NCBI GenBank assembly: GCA_018606725.1
Contig: JAGYID010000001.1
Coordinates: forward strand, 52,803-116,802
DNA length: 64,000 nucleotides
Source: Acidobacteriota bacterium
Lineage (GTDB): Bacteria > Acidobacteriota > Polarisedimenticolia > Gp22-AA2
Direction of reading: 5' to 3'
Shown: piece by piece, positions 46,545-52,522 of the stretch
Layout: each line of letters opens with the position of its first letter
Position numbering within the stretch: position 1 is the stretch's first letter
The notes under the pieces: model-generated
Seen by the model: the letters and a program-made list of their open reading frames with translations, nothing else
Databases searched by the model: none
What the model was told of the DNA's origin: nothing
Position numbers and translations under genes: made by a program

Positions 46545-49500
46545 TCAGGCGGCCTGATCGGTCCGGCCGTAGTCTGCGGGGATGCCGAACTCCTTCATCC
46601 GGCGGTACAACTTCTGACGATTCCAGCCGATATAGCGCGCCGTCTTCGCCTTGTCCCCACCGAAGCGCCGCAGGGCCTCCTCGATCATCAGCTGCTCACC
46701 CGACTTGCGGGTCTCGCCATCGTGGCCCTCGCTTGGCCCGGCCCTCGGTGCGACGGCGCGGAGCCCTTCCGGAAGGTCCTGCGCCGTGATCACGTCGCCG
46801 GGCGACAGAACATGCGCCCGCTCGATGACGTTGGCGAGCTCGCGGACATTCCCGGGCCAGTCGTGCCCCAGCAAAGCTTCGGAGACGGCCGGCCCGAGGC
46901 GTTTCGGCGCGACGCCTTGGCCGGCGCGCTCGCGCAGGAAATGCTCGGCGAGCAGGGGTATGTCTTCGCGCCGGCTGCGCAAGGGTGGGACTTCAATCGA
47001 GACCACGTTCAATCGGTAGTAAAGATCCTGCCGGAATTTCCCCTGTTCCATCAGGGTCTTGATGTCACCGTTGGTCGCGGCGATCACCCGCACGTCCACC
47101 GGGCGGGGCGCGTTCTCGCCGAGGCGGCGCACTTCGCGCTCCTGCAGAACGCGCAGCAACTTCGACTGCAGCGCCAGGCTCGTGTTGGTGATCTCGTCCA
47201 GGAAAAGCGTGCCGCCGCGCGCCTCCTCGATGAGACCGACGCGGTCGCGATCGGCGCCGGTGAAGGCGCCGCGTGCGTACCCGAACAGCTCCGCCTCGAG
47301 GAGATTCTCGGGCAGCGCCCCGCAGTCGACCGCCACGAACTTCTTCTTCTTGCGCGGGCCGTTGTAATGGATGGCGCGCGCCACGAGCTCCTTGCCGGTG
47401 CCGCTCTCGCCCAGGACCAGGACGTTGCAGTCGCTGTCGAGCACGCCGGCGACGACTTCAGTGAGCTTCTTCATCGCCGGGCTTGCGCCGATCAAGTTCT
47501 CGAAGCGCGCCCGGCCCTCCGCCTCACGCCGCAAGCGCGTATTCTCGGTATTCATTTGTCCGAACAGCCGGGCGTTCTCGATCGCGATGGCCGCCTGGCT
47601 GGCGAACGACTCGACGAACGCCCTCTCCTTGTCGGTGAACAGCTGCGGCCCCTTGCGGGTGTCGAGGTAGATGATTCCGACCGTCTTGCCGCGATGGCGC
47701 ATCGGCACGGCGAGGATCGACTTGATCTCGTGCAGGATCAGGCTCTTGTTTGCCGCCAGCGAGGCATCCTGCCCGACATCGATAGTGAGCAGCGTCTGTC
47801 CCTTTGCGACCTGGTCGATCACCGAGCGGCTGAAGGACGTGATGCCGTCGAGGCTCTCCTTGTCCATGCCGCGGGCGATCGCAGGTCGCATCGCGCCCGC
47901 CGCCTCATCGGCGAGGAATACGATGCCGCGCTCGGCCCGGACGTTTTCGATCGACAGGTCCAGCAATTCGCGCAGCAACTCGTTCAGGTCCAGGATCGAC
48001 GTCAGCTTCTGCCCGATCGCGCTCAGCGCCCCGAGCATCCTGCGCGACACCCGCTCGCTCCGGCTGACCGTCGCCATGTCGTAGCGGACTTTCTTGGCCA
48101 CCTCCCCACGCAGCCGCTCGAACCTGTCCAGCACATCACGCACCTTCGCCTGCTCCAGGAACGGCCGGCGCCACTTCTCCTCATCGAGCCCCAGAGCCAT
48201 CTCGTGAATCGTCAGCGCCGCGAACCGATACTTCCGGTAGGCCGTCTCGTACTGAAGCTTCTGTTCGTACAGCCGCCCCAGCCAGTAATTCGCCTGCCAG
48301 AAGAGCGGTTTGTCAGCGTTCTTCCGGGCGATCTTCGCGGCTTCAGTGAGCGCCGCCTCCGCCTCGGCCGGCTTGTTGTCGCGCAACAGTCTTTCGCCCA
48401 GCAATACGAGCGCCCAGGTCAGATGCCAGCGCATGCCTTTATTGCGCGCGGTGGCAATGATGTTGCGCAAGGAGCAGCCGCCAGTTGGGGTGCTGGTTTC
48501 CAACAAGGGATTGGAAATCGCAATGCGTGCGATGTCTCGTAGAAGACCAACATCGAACGAGCATCCGGTGCTTTCGGCGTGAGGGAGTGCATAGTTCTCA
48601 TCATCCGTGTCTGATTGCTCACCTGCCTCATGTCTGGCCAGGGCCATTAGACATCGGAGCTCCAGCTTTAGGGCATAGCCTCCGGACGAGCTGATTTGTC
48701 TCTCTGCAAACCTACCAAACCGAGTCGCGGCTTGGACTCGCCCTATTGTAAGTAGAAGCAGCAACCAACTCGGTAGGACCGACCCTCTCACCTCAATTGA
48801 AGATAGCGCGGGGTTGCGTAATGAATGCTTTAGCAATTCGATCGCTTCTATGAAATTGCCCGTGTGCGCGAGAATGCGCGCCCCATTGCTTCTGGCTATT
48901 GCGGACAAACCTTGAATACCACTTCCTTCGGTTGCTGCAATTGCCGTGGCATATCCTCGGGCAGCATCCATCCATCGGCCCTGCCGCCGGGACACCTCAG
49001 CGAGATTATTGTGCGCGGCTCCCAGCGCAATCGATCTCCCTAGATGGGTCGAGCATTCGACGGCCTTTCGGAAGGCGTTGCGTGCTTTCCGGGAATGCCC
49101 GAGTTCCATGTGAAGCACACCAATATTTGTAAGCGGCCCACTCTCATCTACAGGCCTGCCATCGATGGGACCCAGTAAGTGGGAACGCCTGCTATAAAGG
49201 AGGGCACGGGAGTATTGTCCCTGTTGCCAATAGACGAAGGACAGTTCGGATAACGAGTCCCCAATATGACTCCTGCATCTGTGTCTCCTGGCCAAAGCGT
49301 TTGCCCGCACTAGCGTCCGCTTCGCGTGGGCATAGCGTTGCATCTTGGCGTGGACCTTGCCGCGCACAATCAATGCGCCAATGTGTATGAAGGGATGTGA
49401 ACTAACAGGCGCTGCCCCGTGCGCACGCCTCGCCCATGTCGCGGAGTCGCCCAGATGTCCCATTGCGTATAGGCATCGTGCGCGGGCATAGATGTACGCA

Positions 49501-52196: not shown

Positions 52197-52522
52197 ACTT
52201 GTTTGCACATGGTGGATGGATCGGTCTAAGTGATTGATAAATAAAATGCGTAAAACGACTCTGGCTATCGATTCAGGCTGGATGTTGGCTGTGCCACCCC
52301 GGGCGGCGAGTCTCATGAGCGTTTGTGGTGAACGACTGTAAGTATATTAATGTCTTCTTGTTACGTCGTGTTTTCCAGACAAAATTCAGGATTTCGTCTA
52401 GTGAGACTAGCGTCAAGTCGTTGTTAAATATTGATTTGCTCATTACAGCGTGTTTTGAGTATCACGCAAAACATCAGTGAGACTCTACTCGCGATACCAA
52501 ATTGAGATTGTCGTGAGGTCTG

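Follow-up and report, generated by a model that had tools for sequence, protein, structure and literature searches.

Introduction

STAND/NLR-type sensors are known from MalT, AfsR, PknK of Mycobacterium tuberculosis, the bacterial Avs proteins and the fungal NLRs, and in the NLRs of immunity and allorecognition the sensor part diversifies fast. Sharp intragenic blocks of differing divergence, bounded by homology edges, are found in mosaic genes that arose by interspecies recombination, for example in the pneumococcal pbp genes and in Neisseria. Here we describe a gene which shares traits with both and which is located in a 64,000-nt stretch of an Acidobacteriota genome (GenBank assembly GCA_018606725.1, contig JAGYID010000001.1, positions 52,803 to 116,802). 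This whole stretch is called the window, and all coordinates count from its first letter. The gene, termed gene A (46545..51656, minus strand), encodes a predicted protein kinase fused to a STAND NTPase, a TPR array, a GAF domain and a sigma-54 activator domain. Its first two thirds belong to a low-GC block, which turned out to be the variable part of a conserved Acidobacteriota locus.

Two further types of described systems come close. At the pherotype loci of Bacillus (comQXPA) and Staphylococcus (agrBDCA) a signal-peptide gene adjoins a receptor gene, and comQ, comX and the 5' part of comP are poorly conserved (PMC6334282). Replacement-type flexible islands (O-antigen, glycosylation; Salinibacter ruber) carry divergent content at the same position between conserved flanks, which allow homologous replacement, and flexible genomic islands "as usual" fall below the genome average in GC and in their codon adaptation index (PMC6060240). 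In recombining bacterial core genes the G+C share of third codon positions (GC3) is higher than in non-recombining ones (PMC4450053). A literature search for the architecture of gene A in Acidobacteria found no description.

A Composition Break Inside an Intact Open Reading Frame

The first-pass annotation of the window had marked the region 48450-52520 as AT-richer than its surroundings, with one boundary inside the kinase-activator gene. Sliding GC and GC3 profiles confirmed the shift. GC drops from ~0.65-0.70 to 0.52-0.60 between ~48.3 and 52.5 kb, and the block 48483-52522 has a GC content of 0.561 against 0.690 in the remainder of the 64-kb window. It is the lowest 4-kb stretch of the window (z = -4.4, relative to non-overlapping 4-kb windows with a mean of 0.692, a standard deviation of 0.029 and a minimum of 0.606). 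Gene A itself is an intact open reading frame (ORF) of 1703 codons without any stop. In a maximum-likelihood change-point analysis its GC3 was 0.589 before codon 1058 and 0.870 after it (log-likelihood ratio 81), and the 2-log-likelihood interval spans codons 1047-1091, which corresponds to a boundary zone at 48383..48515 (minus strand). The boundary at ~48450 proposed from the letters alone was thus essentially exact.

The break divides gene A into a sensor module (codons 1-1058; 48483..51656, minus strand; GC3 0.59), which encodes the kinase, the STAND NTPase and most of the TPRs as assigned by Pfam, and an output module (46545..48482, minus strand; GC3 0.87) with the last TPR-like helices, a linker, the GAF domain, the sigma-54 AAA+ domain, the AAA lid and a Fis-type helix-turn-helix (HTH). 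It lies within the TPR array, ~160 codons upstream of the GAF domain, and is not the TPR/GAF junction. GC1 is likewise lower in the low-GC3 part (0.61 versus 0.67-0.72), and GC3 is low evenly along the sensor module, regardless of local protein conservation. Compared with gene B, a paralogue with the same kinase-STAND-TPR-GAF-sigma54 organization (52523..57892, minus strand) and a GC3 of ~0.9 throughout, the sensor module is richer in Ser, Ile, His and Thr and poorer in Ala and Arg.

In its composition the low-GC block is a composite. It consists of the variable module of gene A (GC 0.566, GC3 0.59), a 142-nt spacer with a terminator-like hairpin (GC 0.52), a gene for a repeat peptide at 51799-52134 (GC 0.655, GC3 0.87, typical of the genome) and an intergenic region at 52135-52522 (GC 0.459). 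Given its GC3 of 0.87, the peptide gene is inside the block by position, yet it is not compositionally deviant; its inclusion in the block by the annotation therefore holds for position only.

The Break Is Shared by Orthologous Loci

For comparison ~40 further loci were collected from scans of genome and metagenome contigs, mostly metagenome-assembled genomes (MAGs) of Acidobacteriota and soil metagenomes. Architecture, synteny and the GC3 step were found in ~25 orthologous loci, and 24 full-length loci were used in the identity comparison. When 5.8 billion proteins were searched with the N-terminal 1058 amino acids of gene A, only one close relative was found (P0001, 49% identity), and the other matches were distant or covered the kinase domain only. 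The contig of P0001, locus L001, shows the same GC3 step, a 413-aa enhancer-binding protein (EBP) gene downstream and, upstream, the end of a repeat-peptide gene with DGAVWGGGK units. The amino-acid identity between the window and L001 is 49% in the module and 88% in the C-terminal part; along the gene it stays at ~50% until codon ~1050 and then rises to 85-96%, with 9 of 25 residues identical in codons 1051-1075 and 20 of 25 in codons 1076-1100. With the other orthologues the window shares 25-31% identity in the sensor module and 59-70% in the output module (C-terminal halves mostly 55-70%).

The GC3 step was present in every locus with enough sequence. The N-terminal parts have a GC3 of 0.51-0.65 and the C-terminal parts of the same genes 0.69-0.88, with a mean difference between the halves of 0.21 (20 loci), and the change points of the orthologues mostly fall between -44 and +26 codons from the aligned boundary (window codon 1076). 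The order of the locus is conserved as well: a gene B-like gene, a sigma-54 promoter, a GAIWGG-repeat peptide gene, a terminator, a gene A-like gene and a short EBP gene. The module is present in all orthologous loci, i.e., there is no presence/absence polymorphism. The low-GC block is therefore the variable part of a conserved locus of Acidobacteriota, and as step and synteny are common to ~25 loci, one recent insertion into this genome is excluded.

In a more distant kinase-EBP (P0002, loci L002-L004), whose conserved part is 50-58% identical, the GC3 trend is the same but weaker (~0.52-0.68 in the N-terminal and 0.65-0.77 in the C-terminal part).

The Sensor Module Has a Separate History

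Over the 24 full-length loci (276 pairs) the identities of the N- and C-terminal parts correlate with a Spearman coefficient of 0.80, with strong outliers. Congruent vertical divergence with a fast clock had at first been read from an identity matrix of eight loci and was overturned by the larger set. At the amino-acid level, the C-terminal parts of L035 and L040 are 96% identical and their N-terminal parts 37%. Comparable values were obtained for L032-L039 (94% and 52%), L034-L037 (94% and 50%) and L008-L035 (90% and 36%), whereas L043 and L051 are 94% identical in the C-terminal and 93% in the N-terminal part.

The same pattern is seen in the DNA, where edges are given in codons relative to window codon 1076. 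L035 and L040 are 92% identical until ~45 codons before the start of gene A, followed by 3.3 kb without homology, and again 90% identical from -28 codons. For L025 and L026 the right flank is 98-99% identical over 4.3 kb from -6 codons, with sensor modules of 40% amino-acid identity. For L032 and L039 the left-hand identity of 85% runs through the kinase domain, the middle is non-homologous, and the right-hand side is 96% identical over 11 kb from -18 codons. Flanks with a DNA identity of 90-99% thus surround module segments without detectable DNA homology (modules 36-40% identical in amino acids). The right-hand homology edges lie at -4 to -42 codons, in one pair at -92, which is the same place as the GC3 step; between the window and L001 homology resumes at -10 codons (codon ~1066, window ~48461). 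The GC3 change point may follow these lineage-specific edges (edge at -92 and change points at -71 and -84 for L034/L037; edge at -10 and change points at -17 and -12 for window/L001), a relation that is suggestive but noisy.

The converse was found for L043 and L051. Here the module is 95-97% identical in DNA and the flanks 86-92% (600-nt identity bins), with a synonymous divergence (dS) of 0.105 in the module and 0.349 in the C-terminal part. The right edge of this high-identity tract is ambiguous in a single change-point fit. As the module is closer than the flanks, local hypermutation or a simple fast clock is ruled out as its source. The ratio of nonsynonymous to synonymous divergence (omega) of 0.15-0.31 in the module corresponds to purifying selection, and kinase and Walker motifs are kept. 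For more divergent pairs such as window-L001, dS was not used as a clock between the gene halves, since at a GC3 of ~0.9 synonymous sites saturate at a proportion of differences (pS) of ~0.5-0.6, so that the dS of the C-terminal part is underestimated. No tRNA genes were found in the window, no direct repeats flanking the module and no template/variable repeat pairs.

The divergence of the sensor module is hence decoupled from its flanks in both directions, and the homology edge coincides with the GC3 step. Gene A is modular, with codons 1 to ~1060 existing in many deeply divergent versions and the remainder conserved. In the annotation gene A had been suspected to be a mosaic gene, and this part stands, as the N-terminal two thirds have a separate history with a homology edge at the break; the idea of a foreign cassette fused to a resident activator does not. 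Module replacement is visible in the sister lineages, and we infer it for the window itself, whose module is 49-52% identical to those of L001 and L077. The C-terminal half and the downstream EBP are 88-91% identical to L001 in amino acids (83% in DNA), and the peptide gene and promoter are ~82% identical in DNA to L077.

In L025 a single frameshift at ~3210-3225 interrupts the sensor module in an otherwise intact frame of 952 + 783 codons. Either a fault of the assembly or the onset of decay could account for it.

Domains of Gene A and Neighbouring Genes

By sequence criteria the N-terminal domain of gene A qualifies as a Hanks-type Ser/Thr protein kinase (aa 13-266; PF00069 with 152.6 bits at a cut-off of 31.7), and the motifs AIKIL, HGDLKPEN, DLG (a DFG variant) and APE can be read in the translation. 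It is followed by a predicted STAND/AAA_16 NTPase (aa ~304-397; 40.1 bits, cut-off 32.6) with the Walker A motif GEPGSGKS and by a TPR array which extends to ~aa 1130, with TPR_12 and TPR_2 over their cut-offs. A PDB sequence search of gene A returned matches to TPR proteins only. This order of P-loop NTPase and TPRs assigns the protein, at the level of sequence, to the STAND NTPases with a TPR sensor of the MalT/AfsR/PknK kind. The output module contains a GAF domain (aa 1222-1360, Pfam), a sigma-54 AAA+ domain (aa 1388-1555; PF00158 with 241 bits, cut-off 20.2) with the GAFTGA motif, and a Fis-type HTH (aa 1654-1690; HTH_8 with 41 bits, cut-off 22). Together with a predicted sigma-54 promoter with upstream sites nearby, these domains class gene A as a putative bacterial EBP. 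No obvious membrane segment was seen by eye in the gene A receptor candidate (no prediction was run).

At the boundary a Met residue is nearly invariant. In the window it is encoded by 48432-48434, the ATG of NKGMRWHL, with AAAGG ahead of it, and in the orthologues the motif (R/K)KKM(R)WH occupies the same column. This Met might serve as an internal start for a GAF-sigma54 isoform without the sensor.

Gene B serves as an internal control. It is 47-52% identical to its orthologues in the N-terminal part and 60-64% in the C-terminal part, and its N-terminal part is not hypervariable. On the other side of gene A the short EBP of 413 aa (44940..46181, minus strand; a sigma-54 activator by Pfam) forms the conserved right flank, with 91% amino-acid identity to L001 and 68-72% to the other orthologues. 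NCBIfam, PADLOC and PDB sequence searches of the locus gave generic domain matches only, all under the NCBIfam cut-offs.

The window thus carries three sigma-54 activators in tandem (44940-46181, 46545-51656 and 52523-57892), flanked by a gene for an HD-GYP/GAF/GGDEF protein (58080-60620), and L005 has the same neighbours. The AAA+ domains of the three activators share 63-82% DNA identity over 68-300 nt (repeat families D2-D4). A second lower-GC stretch of the window is located at 30680-33276 (GC 0.556-0.595 at 31-33 kb). It contains the gene for a MalT-like TPR protein of 439 aa (30680-31999, minus strand; GC3 0.68), adjoined by a sigma-70 family gene with a normal GC3 of 0.87 (32332-33276, plus strand), and may hold another variable TPR sensor.

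The Peptide Gene and Its Promoter

The gene upstream of gene A (51799..52134, minus strand) encodes a putatively secreted peptide of 111 aa with a predicted signal peptide, a pro-region and eight DSAIWGGK units, which are encoded by 24-nt tandem repeats. Members of this family are present upstream of the gene A orthologues (seen in the window, L007, L008, L014, L024-L051 and L077). The leader, consisting of the signal peptide and the pro-region (...LF..FLGLFGAIWG), is conserved and is followed by variable GAIWGG-like units, with strain-specific units and spacers such as DSAIWGGK, DGAVWGGGK, GAIWGPN, GAIWGGKPGD, PDGAIWGGKGGRGGTT and others. Some members have a C-terminal Cys pair and end in GAIWGCxxxC. 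Pfam and NCBIfam models gave no match to the family, and no radical-SAM or other modifying enzyme was found among the locus genes scanned. A protein identical to the peptide of the window is present in the protein collection searched.

Where the modules differ (L035/L040, L025/L026, L032/L039, L034/L037, and the window versus L001 and versus L077), the repeat units differ and the leaders are similar, and the only pair with a shared module, L043/L051, has near-identical peptides. This pattern would be expected if peptide and sensor had diversified together, though it is no proof that they did. The first-pass annotation had counted the peptide gene as part of an acquired cassette, which conflicts with its host-typical codons and with a leader that is conserved between strains with different modules.

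Between the peptide gene and gene A an intrinsic-terminator-like element is located (51748..51769, minus strand), a G+C-rich hairpin followed by a T-run, and equivalent hairpins are visible in L001 and L005. A predicted sigma-54-type promoter, TGGCAT-N5-CTGCA, lies ~45 nt upstream of the peptide start codon (52180..52195, minus strand). It is the only match in the 64-kb window, with a chance expectation of 0.08, and TGGCAT-N5-TTGCT is found in the same position in 16 other loci. The AT-rich intergenic region between the peptide gene and gene B (52135..52522; 388 bp, GC 0.459) is probably regulatory and contains three AGTCTCA motifs as candidate upstream activating sequence (UAS) sites, at 52309-52315 (plus strand), 52402-52408 (minus strand) and 52478-52484 (minus strand). 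Over 17 loci AGTCTCA/TGAGACT reaches 6.3 per kb within 480 nt upstream of the peptide gene and 0.07 per kb in the remainder of these loci, an 87-fold enrichment, which is present upstream of the sigma-54 promoter in all 17 loci although the intergenic regions do not align. The motif is probably an enhancer-binding site, a candidate target for one or more of the three EBPs of the locus.

Truncated Gene Calls in Databases

Searches with the conserved region mostly return GAF-sigma54 proteins of 490-580 aa which start at an internal Met just past the break. Short calls of this kind (P0121-P0144) are annotated as "Nif-specific / NtrC-family", with internal starts such as MSRSEKISRRML... and MLNALNSIGQKL.... 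In L006 (35-5020) the frame runs without interruption over more than 1661 codons, yet the gene call covers just 566 of them, and the 3.3 kb upstream are one uncalled open frame. In L005 an in-frame TAG at ~9995-9997 (window codon ~1120) replaces the Gln of ...FWQANYWLGR... and splits the orthologue into calls of 1121 and 578 aa in the same frame; possible causes are a nonsense mutation, an error in sequencing and a genuine split. The stand-alone GAF-sigma54 proteins in the databases are thus at least partly, where checked, truncated gene calls. Gene callers trained on high GC3 cut gene A at the break, and the output half is listed as a stand-alone "Nif-specific regulatory protein" or NtrC-type regulator.

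Origin of the Low GC3

Taken as a whole, the explanation that fits best, and which we regard as fairly probable, combines a sensor module replaced by recombination, a low GC3 that results from shielding, and a sigma-54 output driven by the STAND domain. Whole modules would be replaced through homologous recombination in the conserved flanks, and their diversity would probably be kept by diversifying or frequency-dependent selection on recognition by the TPR/STAND part. The module versions would be too divergent for internal recombination with one another, so that the segment would escape the fixation bias towards GC, be it GC-biased gene conversion or weak selection that recombination renders effective, which is proposed to hold the rest of the genome near a GC3 of 0.9. 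Under AT-biased mutation the module would then settle at a lower equilibrium GC3. For the output, a ligand bound by the variable TPR sensor would cause STAND oligomerization and with it assembly of the sigma-54 AAA+ ring, and from the AGTCTCA sites the assembled ring would switch on the neighbouring peptide gene through its sigma-54 promoter.

An equilibrium GC3 was estimated from polarized synonymous changes (L043 and L051, with L006 as outgroup). It amounted to 0.64 in the module (observed 0.61-0.62) and to 0.78 in the conserved half (observed 0.76-0.77). Estimate and observation are thus close, which argues, at small counts, that the module is neither ameliorating nor decaying. As both halves are translated from one ORF, selection related to expression level cannot explain the GC3 contrast of 0.28. 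The alternative of region-specific constraints, named in the first-pass annotation, came nearer the mark than the acquired cassette, as the low GC is a stable and conserved property.

Several points weigh against this explanation. The polarized counts for the module are small (14 versus 12). The correlation of N- and C-terminal identities means that much of the divergence is also vertical. The peptide repeats are variable at a GC3 of 0.92, so variability alone does not lower GC3. The nearest relatives of the window, L001 and L077, have only ~50% module identity, and none closer was found. Most of the comparison sequences are metagenomic contigs or MAGs; chimeric assembly of close strains could blur the edges but would not create divergent modules. 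Finally, the cause of the low GC3 is deduced from the pattern, which selected AT-richness or rare codons or binding of nucleoid proteins would match equally well.

Of the other explanations the one that survives best, although we consider it unlikely, is that the first ~1060 codons have a low GC3 because it serves a function, be it through rare codons for slow translation, a limited amount of full-length protein, an internal start at KKM(R)WH or an AT-rich extension for regulation or silencing. It would account for a step that is kept in all orthologues though the sequence is not, for the evenly low GC3, for the AT-rich promoter region directly upstream and for the near-conserved Met at the boundary, where callers begin the short form. 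However, the AT-rich tract is interrupted by a peptide gene of normal GC3, and gene B folds the same domain set at a GC3 of 0.9. Functional AT-richness explains neither the coincidence with the homology edge nor the decoupled histories, but it could coexist with module replacement.

We judge it improbable that the descent is purely vertical and that a sensor half which is less constrained or locally hypermutated drifted to AT without exchange. Sensor domains commonly outpace AAA+ domains in evolution, the shift to AT-rich codons extends to GC1 and to amino-acid usage, and the coefficient of 0.80 over the 276 pairs points in the same direction. A clock of this type is difficult to reconcile with module identities that, at ~9-10% DNA divergence of the flanks, span 37% (L035-L040) to 93% (L043-L051) in amino acids, or with modules of 40% identity next to flanks of 98-99% (L025-L026). 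In L043-L051 the module dS is even three-fold below that of the C-terminal part, so that the module is closer than its flanks. Omega indicates purifying selection, and gene B, with the same domains, is neither hypervariable nor GC3-poor.

Slightly less probable still is that the modules circulate among lower-GC hosts or mobile elements and that their composition reflects this pool. Movement of modules between lineages does occur, the GC of flexible islands and plasmids is generally below that of their hosts (PMC6060240), and the GC3 of the module correlates weakly with that of the host half (Spearman 0.39, p = 0.085). Yet none of the sampled host halves falls below a GC3 of 0.69, the 5.8 billion proteins and the contig collections yielded no low-GC host or element with the module, and the polarized changes, despite their small counts, suggest a stable equilibrium in situ.

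A one-off horizontal acquisition, close to what the first-pass annotation had suggested, is very improbable. In this genome or a recent ancestor, a low-GC kinase-TPR-peptide cassette from elsewhere would have joined a resident activator in frame, and it would not yet have ameliorated: the sharp break of composition and identity within the ORF and the 490-580-aa GAF-sigma54 proteins that make up most C-terminal matches and resemble a stand-alone activator would suit it, but architecture, synteny and GC3 step recur in ~25 loci whose conserved halves are only 55-70% identical, so old an insertion should have ameliorated and the module is at compositional equilibrium, the short proteins proved where checked to be a truncated call (L006) or due to an in-frame TAG (L005), the peptide gene has a host-typical GC3 of 0.87, no donor-like homologue outside the family and no low-GC donor is visible among the 5.8 billion proteins, and tRNA genes and flanking repeats were not found.

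Implications

If replacement and shielding are the cause, the locus is an experiment of nature, set within one gene, on the forces that keep bacterial GC high. With a step that ~25 orthologues have conserved and that lies at recombination edges, the two halves form a clean within-gene contrast in a high-GC phylum, on which GC-biased gene conversion or recombination-dependent selection can be tested. In soil Acidobacteriota, moreover, a regulator-peptide locus not described before contains a sensor module that is polymorphic and exchangeable, which hints at recognition or signalling at the level of strains in these hard-to-culture bacteria.

A tentative extension, which we hold to be rather doubtful, is a hitherto undescribed peptide-based cell-cell signalling system of Acidobacteriota. 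The sigma-54-driven precursor would be exported by Sec and cut into multiple Trp-containing units (8 x DSAIWGGK), and these, after uptake, would be sensed by the TPR array of the cytoplasmic kinase-STAND sensor with its fused sigma-54 activator, so that a loop of positive feedback would be closed. The many exchangeable sensor modules would result from diversifying selection on the specificity between peptide and sensor, and the GC3 step would be the signature of a segment long shielded from internal recombination.

Comparison With Known Systems

The hallmarks of a classical acquired genomic island are mostly absent. The composition is atypical, but there is no tRNA gene in the window, there are no flanking repeats, and no integrase or transposase domain was found among the flanking genes scanned; with a module that is present in every orthologous locus, the block is not a classical horizontally acquired island. 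A diversity-generating retroelement does not fit either: no repeat pair matches the module, the flanking genes scanned are regulators, and in L043-L051 the dS of the module is below that of the conserved half.

With the replacement-type flexible islands the locus shares the constant position, the divergent content, flanks that allow homologous replacement and a GC and codon adaptation under the genome average. In contrast to these islands, the exchanged segment is only ~3.2 kb long, it consists of one homologous domain module instead of differing genes, and one border is inside an intact ORF, so that reading frame and domain architecture must survive every exchange. The intragenic mosaics of pbp and Neisseria resemble gene A in their sharp blocks of differing divergence bounded by homology edges. 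Here, however, it is always the same sensor module that is exchanged, one edge is nearly fixed in most lineages, the block keeps a stable composition of its own, and a gene for a signal-like peptide lies next to it.

Gene A resembles the STAND/NLR sensors in that a TPR array comes after its P-loop STAND NTPase, in its N-terminal kinase, which PknK also has, and in a sensor part that diversifies fast. It differs in its output, a covalently fused GAF-sigma54 AAA+ activator, and no nuclease or toxic effector domain was detected. PADLOC gave only generic kinase (PD-T4-6, mad6) and RtcR/PspF AAA+ matches in the locus, so membership in a defence family is unsupported.

The pherotype loci are similar in several respects. 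A gene for a signal-like peptide adjoins a putative receptor gene, the hypervariable segment comprises the mature peptide and the 5' sensor part of the receptor and ends inside that gene, and the peptide leader, the output part and the downstream regulator are conserved. Close strains carry very different versions, which are incongruent with the genome background in L035-L040, L025-L026, L032-L039 and L043-L051. A compositional shift has been reported for comQXP. By its components the locus is not a pherotype locus. In place of a membrane histidine kinase, which was not found among the locus genes, there is an apparently soluble kinase-STAND-TPR module fused to a GAF/sigma-54 activator; an adjacent modification or export enzyme is missing; the precursor of the peptide is built of tandem repeats and has a signal peptide of the Sec type; and the versions look nearly unique per genome instead of falling into few discrete types. 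By analogy the locus may nevertheless work like a pherotype locus, with a putative ligand-receptor relation between peptide and sensor. Compared with all these systems, it is best described as an exchangeable polymorphic sensor module with a border inside an ORF, in a previously undescribed locus of a kinase-STAND-TPR-GAF-sigma54 regulator and a peptide.

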